From IMG/VR virus record IMGVR_UViG_3300011008_000008: DNA of 64,000 bases. One strand, written 5' to 3'. Made by a program: the position numbers and the translations under genes. The notes below the pieces were generated by a model. The model ran no database searches. It saw nothing but the letters and a program-made list of their open reading frames with translations, and was not told the origin of the DNA. Below are positions 3,596-47,178 of this stretch, one piece after another. The number at the start of each line of letters is the position of its first letter. Position 1 is the stretch's first letter. This DNA is from a virus. Its lineage: Duplodnaviria > Caudoviricetes.

Positions 3596-4444
3596 TTAGT
3601 TTTTTGAAATGAGCTTTTCCCGAATATACTGATACCCCCTGTCACTCTCCTCGATGCTGTCATACTTCCTGTTTTTTGTATTATCCTCGAAGCGTTCAAA
3701 TGCTGCCATGACGCCGTAAAAGCCACTGCTAAAATACAATTTCTCCCCTATCCTGTTGACTTCCTCGGCTGTTTGCGCGTTTTCCAGGTCAGAAACAATC
3801 TGCTTCTTTCGCTCAGCGATCAGTGCGCGAAGCTCCTCCAGCTTTTCCGTTTGGTCTGCCTGCAAATAAGCTTTCTTTTTCCTGTCAGCTCGAAGCGCCG
3901 AAGCGCGGCGGCGCAAATCCTCCCGCTTGTTATCCAAGATGTAGCCGCTTTTATCAATGGTGTAACAGTTTGTGTCCCTGCTGTAATAACTCCAATGGTC
4001 TTTCACCGGCGCGACTTTATAGCGTGCGCTAAAATCAATCGTCCTTTCCTCCGGCTTGCGGATATACTTCTTATCCTGAACGATGATATAGTTTTCTATG
4101 TGCGGCATCTTGCGGCACATCTCAAAATCCCCTTTTCTGTAAAAGGTCTCGAAGCCGCAGCACCTATAATCAATTTCAATGCCGCTATAACGCAACCCGA
4201 CAATATGCAGTCTGGAATAACGCTCGGTTCTCGGATTGCGAACCAGCATAACCACCTTATCACCAGGGTGATACCCATATTCAGCGATTGCCTTGGCCAC
4301 TTTGTTGAGCGTAAAGCTCCCTTCCATCACGATACAGGCGAAGGGCTTTTCAAAGTCGAAGCCCGCCACGTTATGCAGTTTGACGAATGCCTTTCTGTCA
4401 ATCTTCGTCAGCCTCTTGATGTTCTCCATGCAATTATTCTTCAT
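3596..4444 (-). CDS. hypothetical protein, 282 aa
   Basis: long ORF, GGAGG RBS, terminator-like hairpin at 3557-3586. Confidence 0.8.
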   Translation of the reverse strand: MKNNCMENIKRLTKIDRKAFVKLHNVAGFDFEKPFACIVMEGSFTLNKVAKAIAEYGYHPGDKVVMLVRNPRTERYSRLHIVGLRYSGIEIDYRCCGFETFYRKGDFEMCRKMPHIENYIIVQDKKYIRKPEERTIDFSARYKVAPVKDHWSYYSRDTNCYTIDKSGYILDNKREDLRRRASALRADRKKKAYLQADQTEKLEELRALIAERKKQIVSDLENAQTAEEVNRIGEKLYFSSGFYGVMAAFERFEDNTKNRKYDSIEESDRGYQYIREKLISKN

Positions 4445-19173: not shown

Positions 19174-19250
19174 TGCGGGGTGACGCAGTTGGTTAGCGTT
19201 CCAGCCTCATAAACTGGGTGTCAGGAGTTCGAGTCTCCTCCCCGCAACCA
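19174..19250 (+). tRNA. tRNA-Met(CAT) (or Ile2)
   Basis: cloverleaf, anticodon loop CTCATAA, TTCGA T-loop, encoded CCA. Confidence 0.85.
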
Positions 19251-19316
19251 GATCGTACATAGCATACCTACGGGCGCTATGTCTTTTATCTATGACATTG
19301 CTGTCATAGAATTTTT

Positions 19317-19393
19317 GGTGTCGTAGTTCAATTGGCAAGAATACTGGCCTGTCACGCCAGAGGTTGAGGGTTCGATGCCCTCCGACATCGCCA
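19317..19393 (+). tRNA. tRNA-Asp(GTC)
   Basis: cloverleaf, CTGTCAC loop, G73, CCA. Confidence 0.92.
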
Positions 19394-19426
19394 CGGATTG
19401 GAGTATCCCGGAAAAACTCTTTATAT

Positions 19427-19511
19427 GGGTAAGTCGTATAGTGGCAATTACAGAGGACTGTAAATCCTCCCCTTTCGAGGTTCGTTGGTTCGAGTCCAAC
19501 CTTGCCCACCA
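19427..19511 (+). tRNA. tRNA-Tyr(GTA)
   Basis: cloverleaf, CTGTAAA loop, long variable arm, ACCA. Confidence 0.92.
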
Positions 19512-19524
19512 TAAACCTGATTAT

Positions 19525-19602
19525 GGACGCATAGCTAAATTGGTAAAGCACTTGACTGTTAATCAAGAGATTTTTCTTTGGGTTCGAGTCCCAATGCGTC
19601 CT
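19525..19602 (+). tRNA. tRNA-Asn(GTT), atypical
   Basis: GGACGCA/TGCGTCC acceptor, CTGTTAA loop; 10-nt variable loop, no CCA. Confidence 0.75.
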
Positions 19603-35990: not shown

Positions 35991-37049
35991 TTGGGAAAAA
36001 CTAATCTAAACGCTGGTAGGTCAACCGTTTATAATTCAATTACCACACCGGAAAAGTTGAGCGAAGTGAACGAAGATAATATTCAATTAGAAAATGATTT
36101 TCTTGAATATCTTGCTTCCACCGACAAATCCAAAGAGACAATTAAACAATATCGTTCCAACCTCCACATTTTCTGGTGCTGGAATTTGGAGAACAACAAG
36201 AATAAATTCTTTGTTGATCTAACGAAGCGTGAGCTTACAAAGTTTCAAAATCACGCTTTGAATGGTTGGGGCTGGTCGCCACGAAGAATTAGAACAGTAA
36301 AAGCCACTTTATCATCTTTAAGTAATTATATTGAAAACATACTTGATGATGAATATGAAGGATATAAATCAATTATTGGTAAGATTGAATCGCCAATTGA
36401 CAGAGCGGTACGCGAGAAAACAGTTTTTCAAGAAAGCGATTTAATGCCTCTACTTGATTACCTCGTTGAAAATAAACAATATATGAAAGCTTGTGCTTTA
36501 TCTCTTGCCATGAACGGCGGTAGGCGTAAGGCGGAATTGCCAAGATTTAAGGTTGGTTATTTCAGGCCAGAGTTTACTATATGCAATGGTGCATTATATA
36601 AAACCCCGGAAAAAGTGCAGACGAAAGGCAGAGGGTTTGAGGGTAAACCCTTGGAGCTGTATACTATTGTCTCGCCATTTCAACCATATTTGGATTTATG
36701 GATGGAAGAAAGACAGAGGCTTGGGATTAATAGTCAATGGTTATTCCCGAAAAAGAAAGATGGGAAATGGGTTGATGAACCGATCCAGACAACAACTCTT
36801 GATTCATGGGCGCGTTCATTTAGTATATTCCTTGGGAAGCCTTTCTATTGGCATAGTTTAAGACATTACTTTACGACAAAGCTTGTGTCGTATGATATAC
36901 CATCCGCAGTAATTCAAGATATCGTTGGTTGGGAATCCGCAGATATGGTTAATCGTTATGACGATACTGAAAAGGATGAACGCTTTGAAAAATACTTTGG
37001 TGCAGATGGAATTAATAAGGTTAAAGCTACAAGACTTGAAGAACTATAA
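35991..37049 (+). CDS. tyrosine recombinase (SPbeta YomM-like)
   Basis: SAM-like N-terminus; GRRKAEL, KG, HSLRH, VGW, RY catalytic residues. Confidence 0.88.
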   Translation: MGKTNLNAGRSTVYNSITTPEKLSEVNEDNIQLENDFLEYLASTDKSKETIKQYRSNLHIFWCWNLENNKNKFFVDLTKRELTKFQNHALNGWGWSPRRIRTVKATLSSLSNYIENILDDEYEGYKSIIGKIESPIDRAVREKTVFQESDLMPLLDYLVENKQYMKACALSLAMNGGRRKAELPRFKVGYFRPEFTICNGALYKTPEKVQTKGRGFEGKPLELYTIVSPFQPYLDLWMEERQRLGINSQWLFPKKKDGKWVDEPIQTTTLDSWARSFSIFLGKPFYWHSLRHYFTTKLVSYDIPSAVIQDIVGWESADMVNRYDDTEKDERFEKYFGADGINKVKATRLEEL

Positions 37050-37108: not shown

Positions 37109-39289
37109 ATGGCTGACTTTGAGGCAAGAGTACTTGCCAAATTAGATTTATCAGAGTTAAATGGTGAGCTGTCAAGGCTATCAAGCTCAAATAATAGGAT
37201 GACAATCCAGCCGCGATTAGATACAAGCGCAATAACAAGGCAGATTGATAATATTGAACAAAGGCTTCGCGCACTTGGAAATATTAGAATTAATCTTGGC
37301 GGAAACACCCGTCAGAATTACAATGGTGCTGATTCATTGCGTGCAATGCAGGAAATGCAGAGCATTATCCGTCAGATCAATTCGACGGAGCTTAAACTAT
37401 CCGGGTTGGATATGGGCAAGAATGCATCACAGATTACTGAATTAAATAACCAACTAAATGTTTTGCAACAGCGCCTTACCAGCGTAATGACATCTCAATC
37501 AAATAATTTAACGGCTGGCCAGTTTGATCAGTTGAATCAATCAGCGCAAGAAGCACAAAATAGGTTGGCTGAAGTTGATGCAAAACTTGCTGATACAAGA
37601 AATCAAATGGCACAGAAAATACAGATGGATATTGATACCGGCAAGATCGATACATCTATTACTTCTGTGACAGAAAAGTATAGCAAATTAAGTAATACTG
37701 GACACTCCAGCTTATCTGCAATTAAAGCAGATATTGAAGAACTCGGAAATCTTCAAGCGGATCTGAACAATGCCACATCGAACGAGCAACTAATCAGCAC
37801 ATACGAGCGTTTCCAGCAAACGCTATCTAAGGTCAAGAATAGCCTATCTACTGTAAGTTCAGAATCAAAAATGATGGCGACATCTTTACAAATTGGCCAG
37901 CTTGATAATAAAATGTCGCAATGGCTATCCAACAATTCAAAGGCTACTAAAGAATATGGTGCTGCCATTAACGCATTGAGATCACGTTTGTCTGAACTTG
38001 CTTCTTCTGGCACTGCGACAACAGCAGACCTACAAGCTCTCGACAACGAGTTTAAACAGATTGTAGTTGATGCAACCGCTGCAGGATTGACAGGCAAATC
38101 CTTTGGTGACATCATTAAGAGCACGGCTCAACAGATGGTTGGGTTTGTTTCCATAGCATCTGTAATGTCAACAGCAATTCGACTATTTAAGGATATGTCG
38201 AAGGAAGTTCTATCTGTTGATACAGCAATGACCGGCTTATATCGTGTTACAGATTTATCGTCCGACCAATATAAGCAGATGTATAGCGAGATGGTAACAT
38301 CTGCAAAAAGCTATGGTTCTACTCTAACCGATATTATCAATGGTACAACGACATGGGTTAAGCTTGGTTTTTCACCGGAAGAAGCGCAAGGCTTATCTGA
38401 TATTACTGCAATATACCAGCATGTTACTGATCTTGATACAGAAACAGCAGTCAAGAATCTTGTAACTGCCTATAAAGGCTATGAGGAACAGCTATTAGCA
38501 TTGACCAATGGCGATTCTGTAAAAGCCACTGAATACATAGCAGATATCTTTGATAAACTTGGTAACGAGTTTGCAGTCAGTGCAGCGGATGTCGGCGCTG
38601 GCCTGGTAAATTCCGCATCTGCTTTAAACGTTGCTGGTAACTCTTTGCAGCAGTCGGCGGCTATGATCACCGGTATTACCGAAGTTACTCAAAATGCTTC
38701 AAAGGCCGGTAATGCTGTACGTACTCTTTCTATGAGATTAAGAGGCGCTACTGCGGAAGATCTGCAAGAGCTTGGCGAGGATACAGATGGTTTGATTACA
38801 TCTGTATCAAAATTGCAAGGAGTAATCAAAGGTCTGACCGGGGTAGATATTACAGACGTTAATGGCCAGATACGTTCTACATTTGATATTATGGACGATC
38901 TTGCGGGAGTGTTCAATGATTTAAAAACAAACGATCAATCATTCCTGCTTGAAACAATCGCCGGTAAAGCGCGTGGTTCTGATATCGCAGCTCTATTGAA
39001 GAATTGGGATCAGGTTAAAGCTGCATATGAAGCAGCGAATAACGCTTGGGGTACAGCTTCAAACGAGCAAGCGGTTTATATGGAATCTCTACAAGGTAAG
39101 ATAAATCAGTTTAAAGCATCCTGGCAATCTTTAGCGAATACAGTACTTTCTTCTGATTTCTTGAAAGGCGCTGTCGATACTGCGACAACATTACTTTCCT
39201 TACTTGATTCTATTGTTGGAAAACTTGGGACAATTCCAACTATAGTAGGCGCTATAACCGCCGCAACATCCCTTAAAAACGGCGCAGGT
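37109..39289 (+). CDS. tape measure protein, exon 1 (727 aa)
   Basis: TP901-type TMP core (VDTAMTGLYRV...DKLGNEFAVS...AGNAVRTLSMRL); ends ..GCA GGT at 5' splice site. Confidence 0.9.
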
Positions 39290-39747
39290 TGAACAGATCA
39301 ATCAGTTCACACATCCAATTATACTACGGAGAATATGCCTGCGAAGCTCTCTAATGGCAACATGAACGAGACTGTCTTATAATTCGCTTGACAGTCAAGA
39401 GGGGCTAAGACATCGAGTGTACTTTTGCCACATGCAAAGGTCTACTCGATAATGGGTTAAACTGGTAGGGGTGATTACCTACCACATAAGACTGGGACGA
39501 ACCGTGGATGAACCTACATACAATAATCCACGGAACTATCAGCAGCCATATCCCGATGCGAATACGGGAAGGTTCAGAGACTATAAACTCACACGGTTGT
39601 TAATCGTGAATGTATAGGCCAAACTGTACTCGGCAGTAGGAATAGCCGAGGTAAAAGATCGACCTGGTAAGCCAGCCAGGGTATAGGAATTGGCGGGTGT
39701 CCCCTACCCCGTTGTGCTTGAGACGAAAAGAGGAAATATGGTATTAC

Positions 39748-39996
39748 CTACCATTTATAGCCGCAATTTTTGCACTCGAATTGTGCCCTTGCTGTAGGAT
39801 TGGTAATACCAAAAGCAAAAGCATTTAGTGAGCGTCGAGTATTAGACACTCTGTTTATATTTGTCGAATGACAAGTTGGGCATTCAATAGTATCTGGCAA
39901 GGCTGTTGCTAACTTACCGCCGCAAATCATACATTTATTTCCGTTATAATCATTCAGTCTAATACCGCATTTTGTACAATATTTTTTCTGCCCCAT
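39748..39996 (-). CDS. double zinc-ribbon protein (intron cargo)
   Basis: CTKC, CMIC, CPTC, CKNC; GAGGTG RBS; own promoter. Confidence 0.85.
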   Translation of the reverse strand: MGQKKYCTKCGIRLNDYNGNKCMICGGKLATALPDTIECPTCHSTNINRVSNTRRSLNAFAFGITNPTARAQFECKNCGYKW

Positions 39997-40015
39997 TTAT
40001 TATCACCTCTTCATT

Positions 40016-40044
40016 ATTATACCATTACTTTACCTGCATGTCAA
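40016..40044 (-). promoter_or_regulatory. sigma-A promoter of intron cargo gene
   Basis: TTGACA(40039-40044)-17-TATAAT(40016-40021) with extended TG. Confidence 0.85.
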
Positions 40045-40080
40045 TTAATTTGTGTATAAGCAGCACATTTAGACAGTTTG

Positions 40081-43000
40081 CTATTCTCTTCATTTGCAGA
40101 TAAAGACGGAAATAATAAAGTTACTTTCTTAGGTAAAACTCTTTCCGATATTAAGGGCGGAAAACTATTTACTAATGATAAAAAAGCATTGTCAGAATAT
40201 ATTAAGGCGCTACAATCCGGGCAATCCCAACAGGAAGCATTTGATTCTACAATGTCTGGTGCGAGTGAAAAGGCACAGATATTTGCAAAGAGTATTGATA
40301 CAAGTAGTGAGTCATTACAAAAATATTCAACTGAAGTCCAGAATATATCTGCGGGATCAAAACTATTAAAAGTAGGGCTTGCTGCTTTAAATTCTATTGC
40401 AGTTTCACTGCTTGCGTCTTTTGCTCAATGGGCTATTTCAAAAGTTATAGATAATGTAGTTAATCGTGTTGAAAACGCTTATAACAAAGCCAAGAAAATA
40501 GCAGATGAAACAGCGACAACAGCTACGAAGTCAACTGAAGATAGTAAAACTCTCGACGAGCTAATAAATAAATATAAAGAGCTTAGAAGTAGTGAAAACT
40601 ATGGAGCGTCTGAAAGATCGCAAGTTGCTACAATACAGCAACAGATTGTTTCTTTAGTTGGTGAGGAAGCGGCTGGTCTTGATCTTGTTAATGGGAATCT
40701 TGAAACACAACTCGGTATTTTAAAGCAAATCTCCGCTGAAAAACTACAAAATGCAATTAGGGATCAAAAGATAGCTACGGATGCCGCAATTGAAGCCGCA
40801 AATGCAACTCCATCTTTGAATAAAACATTGATGGCGCATAACGCATATAAGGGCAATAGGAATGACGAAGCAGCGGCGGCGCTAACAAAGCATGGTATTT
40901 ATAACGTTGGTGGGCCATTTAGCTTTGTCAATGATTTTATTAACGGTTTTCGGATTGACGATGGTACTGACAATGGCGCAACGTTAATGACGCGCTTGAA
41001 CTTTTTAAAACGAGTTCGCTCAGCATTAGAAAGTGAAATCACAGATTTTCAAAGCAATGATGTCTGGGTTGGAGTATCTAAACAGATTAGTGCTTACGAT
41101 GCAGAATTGTCAAAAGTTACTACCGAAGTAAATAAGCAGATGCAATTGCTTACTATGGAAGCAATGCAAAGTAATGGCGATCTGGAAAGTATTGCAAAAG
41201 ATACTGCAGATGGATTTGAGCAATATGTAGATATAATAGTAAGTCAAGTATCAAAAAGTGGATGGTTTGATGATTACATAGACCAAGGATTTATTGATCT
41301 TGATTCAATTCGAGATTATGTAATTACTCAACTATCTTCTATAGAAGACTTCTCTGCTGGTAGAGATAAGTGGAATAAAGAAAATCGAAAAAATGACATT
41401 CTTGATTCAATATTCGGCGCTGGTAGTTTAGGCAGAGCTAAATCCCAGACTGTTGGTGAAATCTCTAAGTTTATAGATTCATTACCAGATGAAGATTTAG
41501 AGATAGCTTATACAGTTGCATTAGATAAACAATCTGAAATAGAAACTGTCGATCAATTTAAAGAGCTTATAGATAAAGCTAAAGAAGATGCTCTAAATGC
41601 CGATTCAATTTCGTTTAATGAGTTTGTTTCAAGCGATACAATCAAAAATGATCTTGAACCAATACTAAAAGAGTATCAAGAAATTGCTGCCGCCAGGAAG
41701 AAATTACAATCTGGTGAAGCCACCGAATCAGATTTGATTTATGAGCATCCTTCTTGGGCTAAATATGCTGGCAATCTTGAAGCTGGATTAATCGATCATG
41801 CTGAAGAATTAAAGAAAAAGGCTGAAACAGAAATTGGTAAAATAGTTATCACCCCTGAAATAGATGAAGATGGCACAGACAATATTGCTGCTTTTGAAAC
41901 ATGGAGAGATTCTTTCTTAAAACAGTTTGAGGAAGAAGGAGTAATAACACTTCCAATAGACATTGATGCTGAAACAACTGGCATGAACAATGTAATGAGT
42001 GCTATTAAATCCTCAGTTTCAGAAACAGGTCTTGCAGCAGACCAAGTTGAAAAGCTAAAAGAAAGATACAAAGGTCTAACTGATGCTGGTGACAGCCTGA
42101 ATAATCTTTTTGACAGAACTACAAGCGGTATCCACCTAAACACAGATGCACTTCGCGAACTTGAAGATGCCTACCAGAAACAATTAACAGATAAGGTTTC
42201 TGTCGATCTTGAAAAGCAACGTAGGCTTTATCAAGAACTGACAGAGAGCATAAATAATGCTGGCGATGCTGATACAAGTGGTCTTGAAGCTCAACGTGCC
42301 GCTGCCGCAAATGCAATACGTGAACTTGAAAGCCTGTCCGCCCAGCTTGCGGGTGTTACATCAAAGTACAACAAGTGGAAGCAAGCAAGAAGCGGTGGCG
42401 AAGAGGGCGATGCCTATGTTGACACCACATCACAGCTAAAGGATCTACAAGAGCAGCGCAAAAAAGGTCTTGTAGGAACAAATGAATTCCGTTCCGCCGT
42501 AGAGTTTATGGCTGGCGGTGTTGAAGATGTAGATTTGTCAACTGCATCAGTTGATCAGTTGGTAGCTGCTTATGATAAGGCATATCCTAAGATGCAGCGG
42601 TATTTCACCGAGAGCAATAAGGGCACTCAGAACTTCCTGAAAGATTTGGAAAAGGCGGGCAAAGCTTCCAAAGATGCCGAAGGCGTATGGTCGTTTGACT
42701 TTGGCGAGGATGGTATGCAAGGCGTCGTTGATGATCTTGGAATTAGTGCCGAGGCAATATATCAGATACTTGGTCGGTTAAAAGATTATGGCGCTGAAGT
42801 TCATCTTGAATCTTTATTTCCAGATATTGATTTACAAGCGGATAATATAGCGGACGCCATTACAGAAGTCGATGAAAAGATTCAACAGGTAAAACAGGAT
42901 ATTGCAGACGGTAAAGTTTCTGAAGAGGCTGGAAATGAACAGATAGAAAAGTATAATGAAGCAAAAGAAGCTTTACAGAATATGGACGTTGGTGCAGAAG

Positions 43001-46000
43001 TAAATACTCTTTCATTAGATGAAGCTTTGGCCAAAATCCAAGAACTTGAAGGAGCTATTACTACACTAACCTCAGCTGGTATTGAAATTCCTGTTAGTAT
43101 TGCTGGGCAATATGATGAGCTTCAGACATTTGTTCAAGAATATAGCGAGAAGAAAAATATTGACGTTGAAGTCAAGGTTAATGTTAGCGGAGATGCGCAA
43201 GAAAAGATTGAAGCTATCAGTAAATCCATCGACGATCTTGGCAAGAAAAAAACTACACTGGAGATTAATGCAACAGATAAGGTATCTACTGTTGTCGATG
43301 GAGCCAAGGAAAAGCTTGACAATACCGCTGAAGGCCTATACAATGCTACTGTTTCTGCTCAAACTGATAGTACGGTAGCGGCAGTTGCGAAAGCGCTCGA
43401 TGAAGCTGCCGAGGATAGAACAGCTACTATTACTACAAAATATGTCGAAGCGCCCGTAACTGGCGATGAACCAGATTATGTTGACAATACTCACATAAAT
43501 GAGGATGGCGTAACAGTCGGTTATAGTGGTGTTCTACCCTATAAAACCCGTGAGCCAGACAAAGGTAAAGACGCTGAAATAGTGCCTATTGAGCAAACGT
43601 GGCAAAATTCGCCCGCCCCGAAAAACCTTGATGTTGAAGTCGAGGCAAGCGAGGATTCCGGCGAAAAAATTGTTGAGCAAGTTCAGGACGATATAGACGA
43701 ACAGCCACCTATTGAAGAAAAGATTATAAACAATAGTGATGGAATGATCATGTTCCCTGGTGACGAGGGGTATGATATTGATGTTGATGTTAATGCATCA
43801 GATCCATCAAAACCTATTGAACAGGTTAAAGAAGCTGCCTCATCTAATCCGATTGAAATCGAGCTTACTAAAAACGACACTAATGATGCCGTTGAAGCTG
43901 CGAATAGTCTTATTGGCAAAGCTGATGAACTTGGTGTGGGTGACATGGAGGGTGGCCCAGAGTTAATCAGCAATCTAACGACTGCATATAACGAGCTTTA
44001 CCAGGCAGAAGTAAAAGCTGCGGAAGTAGCTAAGACTGGCGATAGTTCTGGTGCAACAGAAGCCGCAAGCGAATTACAGTCGGCAGCGCAATCGTATATG
44101 GATGCGTATAATTCCTTATCCGATGTATTATCGTCTGGAATAGAGCCATTAGAAGTTGATGCAGACACAGAGACGGTGTTAAGCAAAATCCAGGCTTTGG
44201 CAGATATAGACCCAACATTAGTTGTTGGTGTAAATGATGTAGCAGTCAAAGCATACCAATCTGAGAATATTGATAAGGATGCTAAGGTTAATTACGCTCT
44301 TGGTAAAACTCCTGACTATAATCCGCAAGATATAGACAGAAATCTTACTTATCACATTAAAACGGTTGGTTCGGTTTCTGGAGGTGCTGGTGCAACTGGT
44401 ACAGCTCACGCTCGTGGCACAGCGTTTAAGTCAGGAAGATGGGGAGTCCGTGGTGAAGGTGACGCATTAGGTGGTGAGACCGGCGAGGAGCTGGTGGTAA
44501 GAGATGGTAGGTTCTTTACTATAGGCACTAATGGCGCAGAATTCTTTCACTATAAAGATGGCGATATTATTTTTAATGCCTCACAGACTAAAGAACTCCT
44601 CGAAAGAGGAAAGATCATTTCTGGCAAGTCTCGTGGAAGGGTATTTGGAAGTGGCTCCGCTTATGCTGAAGGTTTGGCATTTGATGAACCTTCAATATAT
44701 GGTTCAACTAAAGATTATTCCGATAACTCTGGCAGTAGTAGCGGTAAGAAAACCTCCAAGAAGTCAAGTAGTAAAAAGTCCAGTAAATCCAGTAGCAAGA
44801 AAAAGAGTAGCAAGAGCAGCAAAGACTCCAACGACATGATGGATTGGATCGAGGTTGCCATTGACCGTGTTGAACTTGCAATCAAGAAACTTGCAAGAGT
44901 AGCCGACAGCACGTTCAAAGGACTTGCAACCCGACTATCTGCTACCAACGATGAAATAGGCGAAATCTCGAAAAAGATTTCCATTGAGCAACAGGGCTAT
45001 GATCGCTATATGCAGCAAGCGAACAGCGTTAAGCTGACCGATGCTACAAAGCAAAAGATCATGGACGGAACCATTGATATTACTCAATACTCCGATAGTC
45101 AAAAGAAGCGTATTGACGAATTCAAGAAATGGTACGACAAAGCCCAGGATTGTGCCGATGCTGTTGAAGAATTAAATGAAAATCTTGCAACGCTTTATAA
45201 CAACAAATTCGGTGCGATTTCAAAGGATGCTGACAATCAGATTAAGCTGCTGGAGCATCTGACCAACTCATTCAACGATGGCTTAGACTTGATAGAGGAG
45301 CGCGGCTATAAAGGCGGTGCTACCCTGTATGCGTCAATGCAGAATGTTGAGCGTCAGAATATCGCAGTATTCCAGAAAGAGCTTGCCGATCTAACACAAG
45401 TCATGAACGAAGCCGTCAATTCCGGCAAGATTCAGGAAGGTTCCGAAGCATGGTATGACATGCAGCAACAGATCAATTCTGTCAAAGAATCAATCCAAGA
45501 ATCCGAAACAGCCATTGTCAAATACGGCAATGCCATTCGCCAGGTCAAATGGGATTTATTTGATTACACGCAGGATAGAATTGCTACACTTACATCCGAA
45601 GCGCAATTCATGTTTGACCTAATGGAAAGATCTAAGCTGTATGACGATAACGGCAACTTCACCAGCACAGGTAAAGTGCAGGTAGGTATGACCGCGCAGA
45701 ACTATAACGTCTATATGGCACAGGCCGACATGTATGGCGATGAGGTCAAAAACATCACTGCCGAGCTTGCCAACGATCCTAATAACACCAAGCTCATTGA
45801 CCGGCGTGAAGAATTGTTGAAGCTCCAGCAAGAATCAATTTCATCCGCCGAGGATGAAAAACGCGCAATGGCTGATTTGGTTGAGGAAGGTATCAACGCG
45901 CAACTTGACGCCCTGAAGGATTTGATTGATGCCTATGAGGAGTCCCTTAGTAACGCGAAAGATTTATACGACTATCAGAAGAAGGTTAAGAATCAGACAA

Positions 46001-47178
46001 AGGAAATTGCTTCGATACAGAAACAATTATCTGCCTATCAAGGTGATACGTCCGAAGAAAACCAGGCGCGTTTACAGAAGTTGAAAGTTGATCTTTCTGA
46101 TGCAGTCGAAGATTTGCAGGACACCCAATACGACCAATATATTAAGGATCAGAAGAAACTATTGGACGGTCTGTATAGCGATTATGAGGAATTGCTGAAC
46201 AATCGTTTGGATGATATCGACGCGCTAATGCTTGAAATGATTGATTACGCAAACGCGAACGCAGTTGAGATTGGTCAAACCATTTACGATGAAGCCGCCC
46301 AAGTTGGATATACCATTACAGACAATATGAACGAAATCTGGAATAGCTACAATACAGATAATGTATTAGAGAAATATGGTGAATCTATTCTTGGACAGTT
46401 TGGGTCTGTGACCAACGTTATCAACGGAATAGTCAATCAGGTTGCTGCAATAAACAACGCTGCGAATGCAATTGCCGCGCAGGTTCAAGCGAAGGTAGCC
46501 GCGAGTGCTGCAGCTTCAACTGGTGGTAGCGCCGCCGCGATAGTATCATCACCTTCGGTAGCTGCCGCTGCATCAGGTGGACAAAAGGTTACAGTCGCAA
46601 ACGGACAATGGTGGCTGTACAAGAATGGCCCAAAGAGTGGACAGACATCTGATATTGTTCATACCGGTGAGAAGTATGAATATCTTGGTGAGGATAAAGC
46701 CTCTAACGGCGAGAAGTATACCAAGATCAGCTACAAGGGTAAAGTGCGCTGGTTCAATTCTAAAGGTAAGGGCAAGCTGGGCTATTCCCAGGGTGGCTTT
46801 ATCGCAGATCTCCAGAAGATTGCTTATCAGAACGGCGATGATATGTTGACCTTCAATACGCTAAAGCGTGGCGAAGCAGTATTGACGCCGGAGCAATCTA
46901 TACAGTTCAAGAATCTGACAGATCATTTGCCACAGTTGCAAGGCATTATAGATATGTCTGGCCATATGCAACAAATCAGATCGGGTAGCAATGCCTCCAG
47001 CGGAGAAATCAGAATCGATGTCGGAGGAATTACTACCACGGTTGAGAATGTGCAGGACTACAATGACTTCCTGCGGCAAATGAGAGACGATAAGAATTTC
47101 GAGCGCATGATCGATGCGATGACACTTGATCGCTTGGTTGGTAAATCCAGTTTGGCGAAAAAGAAGTATTTCAGTTAG
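40081..47178 (+). CDS. tape measure protein, exon 2 (2365 aa; spliced total 3092 aa)
   Basis: long helical/coiled-coil ORF, GETGEELVV motif, SH3b-like segment near C-terminus; no RBS of its own. Confidence 0.88.
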   Translation, partial: LFSSFADKDGNNKVTFLGKTLSDIKGGKLFTNDKKALSEYIKALQSGQSQQEAFDSTMSGASEKAQIFAKSIDTSSESLQKYSTEVQNISAGSKLLKVGLAALNSIAVSLLASFAQWAISKVIDNVVNRVENAYNKAKKIADETATTATKSTEDSKTLDELINKYKELRSSENYGASERSQVATIQQQIVSLVGEEAAGLDLVNGNLETQLGILKQISAEKLQNAIRDQKIATDAAIEAANATPSLNKTLMAHNAYKGNRNDEAAAALTKHGIYNVGGPFSFVNDFINGFRIDDGTDNGATLMTRLNFLKRVRSALESEITDFQSNDVWVGVSKQISAYDAELSKVTTEVNKQMQLLTMEAMQSNGDLESIAKDTADGFEQYVDIIVSQVSKSGWFDDYIDQGFIDLDSIRDYVITQLSSIEDFSAGRDKWNKENRKNDILDSIFGAGSLGRAKSQTVGEISKFIDSLPDEDLEIAYTVALDKQSEIETVDQFKELIDKAKEDALNADSISFNEFVSSDTIKNDLEPILKEYQEIAAARKKLQSGEATESDLIYEHPSWAKYAGNLEAGLIDHAEELKKKAETEIGKIVITPEIDEDGTDNIAAFETWRDSFLKQFEEEGVITLPIDIDAETTGMNNVMSAIKSSVSETGLAADQVEKLKERYKGLTDAGDSLNNLFDRTTSGIHLNTDALRELEDAYQKQLTDKVSVDLEKQRRLYQELTESINNAGDADTSGLEAQRAAAANAIRELESLSAQLAGVTSKYNKWKQARSGGEEGDAYVDTTSQLKDLQEQRKKGLVGTNEFRSAVEFMAGGVEDVDLSTASVDQLVAAYDKAYPKMQRYFTESNKGTQNFLKDLEKAGKASKDAEGVWSFDFGEDGMQGVVDDLGISAEAIYQILGRLKDYGAEVHLESLFPDIDLQADNIADAITEVDEKIQQVKQDIADGKVSEEAGNEQIEKYNEAKEALQNMDVGAEVNTLSLDEALAKIQELEGAITTLTSAGIEIPVSIAGQYDELQTFVQEYSEKKNIDVEVKVNVSGDAQEKIEAISKSIDDLGKKKTTLEINATDKVSTVVDGAKEKLDNTAEGLYNATVSAQTDSTVAAVAKALDEAAEDRTATITTKYVEAPVTGDEPDYVDNTHINEDGVTVGYSGVLPYKTREPDKGKDAEIVPIEQTWQNSPAPKNLDVEVEASEDSGEKIVEQVQDDIDEQPPIEEKIINNSDGMIMFPGDEGYDIDVDVNASDPSKPIEQVKEAASSNPIEIELTKNDTNDAVEAANSLIGKADELGVGDMEGGPELISNLTTAYNELYQAEVKAAEVAKTGDSSGATEAASELQSAAQSYMDAYNSLSDVLSSGIEPLEVDADTETVLSKIQALADIDPTLVVGVNDVAVKAYQSENIDKDAKVNYALGKTPDYNPQDIDRNLTYHIKTVGSVSGGAGATGTAHARGTAFKSGRWGVRGEGDALGGETGEELVVRDGRFFTIGTNGAEFFHYKDGDIIFNASQTKELLERGKIISGKSRGRVFGSGSAYAEGLAFDEPSIYGSTKDYSDNSGSSSGKKTSKKSSSKKSSKSSSKKKSSKSSKDSNDMMDWIEVAIDRVELAIKKLARVADSTFKGLATRLSATNDEIGEISKKISIEQQGYDRYMQQANSVKLTDATKQKIMDGTIDITQYSDSQKKRIDEFKKWYDKAQDCADAVEELNENLATLYNNKFGAISKDADNQIKLLEHLTNSFNDGLDLIEERGYKGGATLYASMQNVERQNIAVFQKELADLTQVMNEAVNSGKIQEGSEAWYDMQQQINSVKESIQESETAIVKYGNAIRQVKWDLFDYTQDRIATLTSEAQFMFDLMERSKLYDDNGNFTSTGKVQVGMTAQNYNVYMAQADMYGDEVKNITAELANDPNNTKLIDRREELLKLQQESISSAEDEKRAMADLVEEGINAQLDALKDLIDAYEESLSNAKDLYDYQKKVKNQTKEIASIQKQLSAYQGDTSEENQARLQKLKVDLSDAVEDLQDTQYDQYIKDQKKLLDGLYSDYEELLNNRLDDIDALMLEMIDYANANAVEIGQTIYDEAAQVGYTITDNMNEIWNSYNTDNVLEKYGESILGQFGSVTNVINGIVNQVAAINNAANAIAAQVQAKVAASAAASTGGSAAAIVSSPSVAAAASGGQKVTVANGQWWLYKNGPKSGQTSDIVHTGEKYEYLGEDKASNGEKYTKISYKGKVRWFNSKGKGKLGYSQGGFIADLQKIAYQNGDDMLTFNTLKRGEAVLTPEQSIQFKNLTDHLPQLQGIIDMSGHMQQIRSGSNASSGEIRIDVGGITTTVENVQDYNDFLRQMRDDKNFERMIDAMTLDRLVGKSSLAKKKYFS

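Follow-up and report, generated by a model that had tools for sequence, protein, structure and literature searches.

The 64,000-nucleotide stretch of DNA analysed here (the window) comes from a virus record of 151.6 kb that is complete and has terminal repeats (IMG/VR IMGVR_UViG_3300011008_000008), and the phage it belongs to is a large gut phage. Its gene for the tape-measure protein (TMP), of ~3090 amino acids (aa), is probably interrupted by an old and divergent group I intron that has no homing endonuclease gene, is fixed at one site and appears to provide a safe site for accessory genes. The original prediction, made from the sequence of the window, had proposed such an intron with a small non-endonuclease gene inside it, and a check of the sequence found each of the elements that it listed where it had placed them. 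Comparison with related phages carries the finding further: compensatory changes preserve the pairings in related loci, which makes them more than chance, and the same intron holds different genes in different phages. The parts of the interrupted gene and the elements on which predicted splicing depends are as follows.

37109–39289, plus strand: TMP exon 1, 727 codons with a PhageMin_Tail domain; the final codon is GGT, and the last 7 nucleotides (nt) are the 5' strand of P1
39290–40080, plus strand: predicted group I intron, 791 nt, opening with an in-frame TGA
40081–47178, plus strand: TMP exon 2, 2365 codons and a stop; its first bases, CTATTCTCT, form P10
39328–39343, plus strand: internal guide, with the P10 strand GGAGAATA (39328–39335) immediately 5' of the P1 strand GCCTGCG (39337–39343)
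40073–40080, plus strand: 3' strand of P9.0, ACAGTTT, and the terminal G (omega G40080), with the 3' splice site directly after it
39290–39736, plus strand: structured ribozyme part, with the P1 loop hairpin, P10/P1 guide, P2, P2.1a (GNRA loop), P2.1b, P3, PX, P4, P5, P6, P6a, P7, P8, P9.0, P9, P9a, P9b, P9c and a loop pseudoknot, drawn from alignment A1, pair counts and RNAalifold

The 727-codon open reading frame (ORF) spans 37109–39292 and closes on the in-frame TGA that is the first codon of the intron. Removal of 39290–40080 fuses 727 and 2365 codons in phase to give the TMP of 3092 aa that had been predicted; the predicted spliced junction reads GCAGGT–CTATTC in RNA and NGAG–LFSS in protein, with GGCGCAGGTCTATTCTCT as the junction word. 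At the 5' splice site, CGCAGGT (39283–39289) pairs with the guide GCCTGCG (39337–39343) over 7/7 positions, including the U39289.G39337 wobble. At the other end, GGAGAATA pairs with TATTCTCT of exon 2 (40082–40089) as P10, with 8/9 pairs in the window, and AAACTGT (39621–39627) pairs over 7/7 positions with ACAGTTT (40073–40079), which G40080 follows. The core elements Q, R, P3, P8 and S were likewise found at the positions given for them.

The same element was observed at the same site of the TMP gene in 14 further distinct lineages from independent assemblies (L007, L011/L012, L014/L015, L018, L140, L141, L142, L144, L145, L147, L148, L168, L257 and L258), making 15 with the window. These loci were found either through homologues of the cargo protein in metagenomes or through a DNA pattern specific to the family, the latter giving the members with other cargo. 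A looser pattern scan of genome contigs returned 106 loci, and the family model, run on 100 of these, confirmed L168 alone as a genuine member. Both splice sites were placed by homology, as predicted sites, in the window and 10 lineages. The predicted introns of these 11 loci measure 770, 785, 788, 791, 878, 881, 980, 1130, 1138, 1518 and 1816 nt, lengths that take in all residues modulo 3, and predicted excision restores the frame at a codon boundary in every one (G before the junction, then I or L and F or L after it). P1 has 7/7 pairs and the U.G wobble in all 12 loci scored (the window and 11 others), with five exon sequences (CGCAGGU, CAAGGGU, CGCGGGU, CGUGGGU and CCUGGGU) each matched by a guide of its own. 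Across the scored loci P10 comprises 5–9 base pairs (bp) and P9.0 comprises 6–7 bp. A terminal G is present in 10 of the 11 lineages with both splice sites, as well as in L146 and L148/L149, the exception being L007.

Base pairs were scored with a hand-drawn structure on A1, an alignment of 13 sequences covering the 5' 450 nt of the intron in which 92.4% of cells were paired. Double-sided (compensatory) changes were seen in 47 of the 96 modelled pairs, against 6–11 in slid controls, and none of 500 shuffles reached this value. Covariation was found in P1, P2, P2.1b (7/7), P3, PX, P5 (8/8), P6, P6a, P7, P8, P9, P9a, P9b and P9c; P3 and P7, which cross to make the pseudoknot typical of group I introns, both covary. 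RNAalifold, unaided, predicted PX, P4, P5, P6, P6a and P8. Between lineages the intron core has 68–79% nucleotide identity and the flanking TMP protein 25–53% identity (66% over a short stretch in L141), and this conservation of the core above the flanking protein argues that the RNA is under a constraint of its own. Two more distant TMPs (L002 and L003, ~30% identity) are single uninterrupted ORFs that are collinear with exon 1 and exon 2, and the family model gave no hit to either of them. In all 11 loci the in-frame start codons 450 nt or less from the beginning of exon 2 have no Shine–Dalgarno sequence; strong Shine–Dalgarno sequences precede the cargo genes. The intron reading of the original prediction is thus supported comparatively by P1, P10, P9.0, the terminal G, covariation in the core, phase-0 excision and the uninterrupted distant TMPs, and from these sequence comparisons we infer that the TMP intron is spliced.

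Several of these observations bear directly on an explanation that dispenses with splicing. In it, TMP-N and TMP-C are long-split genes, and the conserved structured RNA that separates them either serves in regulation or processing or is the relic of a dead intron, with an ordinary divergent small gene beside it. A guide that follows five exon sequences with its U.G kept, and a P10 that follows exon 2, are unexpected of a relic or a regulator. The phase-0 junction whatever the length of the insert, the exon 2 frame that has no Shine–Dalgarno start and the core that is better conserved than the protein exons also speak against it. It draws its strength from the failure of the standard model to recognise the element, from a weak P4 and a non-canonical P7, from the one lineage with a terminal A and from the listing of no RNA run with the sequence, and we regard it as improbable.

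Classification was approached with covariance models. RF00028, the group I model, gave no group I hit on the whole window at its gathering cut-off, so that this check, named with the original prediction, was negative. Other comparisons place the element among group I introns. Its Q (ATCAGCAGC) and R (GTTCAGAGACTA) exactly match a pattern that is present in more than 120 viral contigs, and in a test of 20 of these contigs, 15 proved to have RF00028 introns that score at the gathering level. R1, a covariance model built on the core of the family, hits eight RF00028-verified introns at the same coordinates with 15–22 bits, a reciprocal test that is partly circular because the loci were picked by motif. 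A four-pair P4 (CUGG/UCAG), the PX hairpin, the lack of P7.1/P7.2, a diverged S and the A.G in P7 are the likely reasons for the failure of RF00028. The element is therefore filed, on sequence grounds and without assignment to a subgroup, as a divergent group I intron by its topology, its splice-site logic and its Q and R. R1 gave no hit on a canonical intron that lies elsewhere in the genome (53389–53639), which indicates that the phage carries two unrelated group I introns.

Two unrelated observations were made on viral contigs in the course of these searches. Four separate RF00028 introns lie within ~1.7 kb of one contig (IMGVR_UViG_3300035070_001968, locus L031, 148–1763), and a Glutamine-II riboswitch aptamer (58 bits; locus L025, 5330–5386) was found on another that also bears a group I intron.

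The core of the intron in the window has the following parts.

39453–39458 with 39586–39591, plus strand: P3, TGGGTT with AACTCA, from the sequence check
39464–39483, plus strand: extra hairpin PX, GGTAGG/CCTACC, between J3/4 and P4, with covariation in 4/6 pairs
39492–39495 with 39539–39542, plus strand: P4, CTGG with TCAG, only 4 pairs, invariant
within 39492–39547, plus strand: J4/5 (GACGAA) and P5, 8 bp, covarying throughout
39539–39547, plus strand: Q-like element, TCAGCAGCC, from the sequence check
39571–39583, plus strand: R, GGTTCAGAGACTA, from the sequence check
39592–39597 with 39603–39608, plus strand: P8, followed by J8/7 and the 3' strand of P7
39613–39620, plus strand: S, the 3' strand of P7, TATAGGCC, diverged in sequence
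39621–39627, plus strand: 5' strand of P9.0, AAACTGT, within the block 39571–39627 (R, P7 5' strand, P3 3' strand, P8, J8/7, P7 3' strand and P9.0 5' strand)
39411–39450, plus strand: 40-nt hairpin between P2 and P3, seen only in the intron copy of the window phage

The last of these, being unique to the window phage, suggests that the periphery of the intron tolerates insertions. For P4, the first copy of AAACTG 3' of P3 was considered as a strand and rejected, since it overlaps the covarying PX and varies between sequences; the second copy (AGACTGGGACG) is invariant and was paired by RNAalifold as a P4 strand.

A number of results weigh against the reading as a spliced group I intron. Even with the cut-off relaxed to E<=10, RF00028 did not report a group I intron in 39150–40250, in 39440–39700 or in the L011 element, and the same model does detect the canonical intron outside the window in the same genome (G000:C1:53389–53639, locus L150) at 60.7 bits. 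A PX hairpin in J3/4 is unusual for group I introns. P4 is short, and its four pairs are invariant, so that covariation cannot test it. The intron in the window has no P7.1/P7.2; its P7 has a G-C pair with a bulged A, and the adjacent pair, beside the presumed G-binding pair, is A.G, while a simple alignment of the L014 and L142/L144 types has two Gs facing each other at this P7 position. The L007–L010 lineage, with contigs from four runs of one study, has a terminal A in place of G, at ACAGTTTA followed by ATATTC. An in-frame alternative 3' splice site with G was sought in L007 and none was found, nor was there a compensating change in P7; this terminal A may have arisen recently and inactivated the intron, or it may be a variant that is tolerated. 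Among the sequencing runs searched for the stretch no RNA run was listed, part of it being present in a single gut-metagenome DNA study only. The loci, moreover, were selected by cargo protein or intron motif, and the share of close relatives that are without the intron is therefore not derivable from them.

With these points set against the comparative evidence, splicing of the TMP intron is best pictured as follows. In the late TMP transcript, the 5' 447 nt of the intron would fold into the ribozyme and the guide would pair with the last 7 exon bases, U39289.G forming the wobble. External guanosine would then attack after 39289, the 3' end would be brought in through P9.0 (AAACTGT/ACAGTTT) and P10, and G40080 would dock, so that the exons could be ligated in phase (NGAG–LFSS). 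Unspliced RNA would meet a stop at the first intron codon and yield only a 727-aa N-terminal product. The stretch from the P9 periphery, which ends at ~39736, to the last ~8 nt would be unneeded for the fold. It houses an independent transcription unit and tolerates insertion and replacement, and in related phages cassettes have been gained or swapped there repeatedly.

In the window, this stretch contains the following features.

39748–39996, minus strand: cargo gene, antisense to TMP, for an 82-aa protein with two zinc ribbons and four CxxC pairs
40003–40044, minus strand: cargo promoter, with -35 TTGACA (40044–40039), a 17-nt spacer, a TG-extended -10 TATAAT (40021–40016) and a GAGGTG ribosome-binding site; 12/12
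39663–39680, minus strand: terminator-like hairpin and T-run for the antisense transcript, which is the P9a helix on the other strand; weak match

An antisense zinc-ribbon cargo with its own promoter, as originally described, is thus in place. Its non-endonuclease nature was upheld as well: searches of the 82-aa protein against Pfam, PADLOC, NCBIfam and PHROGs matched no nuclease family, with zinc-ribbon matches below cut-off as the only result, and no LAGLIDADG, GIY-YIG, HNH/His-Cys, PD-(D/E)xK or EDxHD domain was present. The Cys pairs are invariant, as is the C-terminal block FGIxNPTARAQFECKNCGYKW; the lone His is not conserved. Over the C-terminal 46 codons the ratio of nonsynonymous to synonymous change (pN/pS) is 0.01–0.35, with synonymous change (pS) saturated, and ratios this low mark the ORF as a real protein-coding gene under purifying selection. 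AlphaFold2 models of the protein, alone and with 13 homologues, reached pLDDT (predicted local distance difference test) values of 60–63, too poor for a fold search, and the ESM Atlas returned only generic zinc-ribbon clusters, below 0.9. Our best guess is that the protein would be a small accessory factor that binds nucleic acids and whose expression, driven by a host-type promoter, falls outside the late programme.

Its close homologues with readable context (P0003, P0006, P0007, P0009–P0013, P0016 and P0020) all lie inside this intron, antisense between TMP-N and TMP-C. The C-terminal module (residues 38–82, window 39748–39885; pattern CPxCxS...FG...A.QFxCxxCGYKW; P0015–P0163) is far more widely spread, with 1834 representatives at E<=0.001 in phage and Bacillota proteins and no Pfam family that covers it. 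Fusions to membrane segments or to further zinc ribbons are frequent, the N-termini vary and many of the proteins are longer, and in L261 a protein with the module stands free beside a Peptidase_M78 gene in a prophage-like context that leaves no room for an intron. The confinement of close homologues to the intron, the wide presence of the gene on the intron tree and the invariance of the C-terminal module under strong purifying selection would suit a zinc-ribbon protein that is the intron's own co-evolved factor, whether a new mobility, target-binding or splicing-helper protein, rather than passive cargo. We consider this quite unlikely. Four lineages (L140, L141, L142 and L168) are without the zinc-ribbon gene and still have a conserved ribozyme core; the gene is antisense with its own host-type promoter; no nuclease motif is present, and the only His is not conserved; and the module occurs in the many other proteins just described, including the free-standing copy.

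The accessory-gene reading is supported by the diversity of the cargo. Whether the same intron holds different cargo genes in related phages was a check named with the original prediction, and the answer was positive. The cargo arrangements, each with a near-consensus promoter, are as follows.

Window, L007, L011, L014, L018 and L257 (whole intron read): zinc-ribbon gene alone
L148 and L258 (contigs span the intron only in part): zinc-ribbon gene
L144: zinc-ribbon gene and a sense-strand TenpIN type III toxin with its own promoter
L145 and L147 (intron positions ~437–745): zinc-ribbon gene and a ~300-nt module with a tiny hydrophobic ORF between convergent 12/12 promoters
L140: zinc-ribbon gene replaced by a 108-aa membrane/zinc-ribbon protein with a clear terminator
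L141: zinc-ribbon gene replaced by three ORFs, including a 226-aa membrane protein (sense strand) and an 80-aa homologue of the L140 protein
L142: zinc-ribbon gene replaced by a 154-aa lipoprotein
L168: PBECR4 nuclease-fold protein, tentatively inside the intron, as the 3' splice site could not be placed

No homing nuclease or transposase was found in the window or in the 10 lineages with the whole intron read, and PADLOC returned nothing for any of the cargoes. The TenpIN toxin of L144 was identified with NCBIfam (NF047358, 139.6 bits against a cut-off of 90), and Pfam gave nothing. Upstream of it, at 3780–3960 (minus strand as fetched), are a TTGACT..TAGAAT promoter and two copies of AAGCTCACTGAGAAGAA ~56 nt apart. 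These repeats, which may be antitoxin RNA repeats, were found by eye, and the single array reported by Tandem Repeats Finder lies elsewhere. The tiny hydrophobic ORF of L145 and L147 (...TTYEIIMVLLTVVGLVIAVKK) has a strong ribosome-binding site and is flanked by 12/12 promoters of sigma-70 type, features by which the module appears to resemble a type I toxin–antitoxin module.

In a tree of the intron core (midpoint root, short alignment) the zinc-ribbon cargo is found on most branches and the other cargoes are derived. This distribution suggests that the zinc-ribbon gene, probably the ancestral cargo, has long resided in the intron and did not arrive recently, and that other cargo was later added to it or took its place at least four times. 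The cargo also has traits of phage morons, namely its own promoter and variation between relatives, together with a terminator that is clear in L140 and weak in the window. The landing-pad reading in the original prediction, by which the intron receives accessory genes, is supported by the comparative evidence.

Every member of the family has an antisense promoter, scoring 11–12/12, at 35–110 nt from the 3' splice site. Its retention in spite of different cargo, its direction into the core (12/12 in the window) and the location of the sole terminator-like site on the cargo strand inside the ribozyme, at P9a, would agree with a mainly regulatory role, in which strong antisense transcription that starts at the cargo promoter and runs into the ribozyme would hold back or gate splicing and thereby set the timing of TMP production, the protein being secondary. 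This idea runs against the protein-level selection on the cargo ORFs, against the cargo that lies on the sense strand (the TenpIN toxin of L144 and the 226-aa ORF of L141) and against the strong terminator that L140 has of its own before the core; we judge it unlikely. As for why the intron persists, we give a little better than an even chance to the view that large gut phages of one clade have retained it for its dispensable 3' region, a place within an essential virion gene where accessory or conflict cassettes with promoters of their own can enter and be exchanged, the core and the P9.0/exon-2 junction serving as fixed recombination flanks.

Some further features of the locus were recorded. 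A tyrosine recombinase gene (PF00589 with a SAM-like N-terminal domain; window 35991–37049, plus strand) lies directly upstream of TMP, within the tail module, and gene calls place a tyrosine recombinase next to TMP in L007, L011, L014, L018, L147 and L257 as well. Four tRNA genes are clustered at window 19174–19602. A BLAST search of 38700–40700 against annotated phages gave no match, nor was anything found in viral contigs scanned with the initial 340 residues of TMP exon 2. A 52-aa junction peptide had no match to longer proteins in a search limited to <=2000 residues, which makes it a weak test.

Phage group I introns are usually regarded as vehicles of homing endonucleases or as empty relics. 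A literature search, which was not exhaustive, found no description of promoter-driven, antisense or toxin–antitoxin cargo in phage group I introns, and promoter-driven, exchangeable cargo that is neither nuclease nor transposase appears to be new for such an intron. Should splicing be confirmed, self-splicing introns would be a route by which phages gain accessory genes without breaking essential ones, and some of the 'split' TMP genes of metagenomic phages would be explained. It would also follow that the standard Rfam model misses a whole lineage of phage group I introns, and the intron would offer a natural model for the insertion of payload genes into essential phage genes. If the safe-site reading is true, a self-splicing intron has a new role in phages, and hot spots of accessory genes can hide in genes that are annotated as split. 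The unusual core, with PX, a four-pair P4, a non-canonical pair by the G-binding site and a terminal-A lineage, may be of interest to specialists in ribozyme structure.

Known systems share parts of this arrangement. In the classical phage introns (T4 td, nrdB and sunY; SPO1; Twort) and the RF00028-type introns found in viral contigs in this analysis, sense-strand GIY-YIG, HNH or similar nucleases drive homing. The intron described here shares with them the Q and R sequences and the location in an essential gene; like them, it has an in-frame stop early on, and its ORF loops out from a peripheral element. It differs in that no nuclease is encoded in the window or in the 10 wholly read lineages. 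Morons lie between genes, usually at module borders. Like them, the cargo gene is small, is driven by a sigma-70-type promoter of its own (with a terminator in L140) and varies among relatives, and its conflict-type content (a type III toxin–antitoxin toxin, a lipoprotein and membrane proteins) recalls accessory-gene hot spots; unlike morons, it interrupts the coding sequence of a structural gene that is essential, an arrangement that the intron would make tolerable. A further parallel is the group I intron of fungal mitochondrial rnl, which carries the host-useful rps3 as a single fixed sense cargo translated from the intron. Both have a stable non-nuclease gene in a group I intron, whereas the rnl intron, an organellar one, has neither the independent promoter nor the cargo turnover described here.

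Closest in location are the TMP group I introns TMP-IVS1/2/3 known in prophages of the Bacillus cereus group (Tourasse and Kolsto 2008, PMC2504315). These are of IA1/IA2 types with homing endonuclease genes or remnants; P1 and P10 match their site of insertion, and some copies are without a complete homing endonuclease gene and passively inherited (PMC2504315). The intron in the window is likewise a group I intron in a phage TMP gene with P1 and P10 fitted to its site. Unlike TMP-IVS, it is without P7.1/P7.2, carries promoter-driven non-nuclease genes and is missed by RF00028; its P4 is preceded by an extra hairpin, and its P2/P9 periphery is large. In the IStron CdISt1 of Clostridioides difficile, an IS200/605 element lies in the 3' end of a group I ribozyme and the transposases move the whole unit (PMC3984707). 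As in the IStron, foreign non-endonuclease genes occupy the interval from the P9 region to the 3' splice site, where splicing would make the insertion harmless; unlike the IStron, the intron described here has no tnpA/tnpB, stays at one site and holds cargo that is mostly antisense, has its own promoter and differs between relatives.

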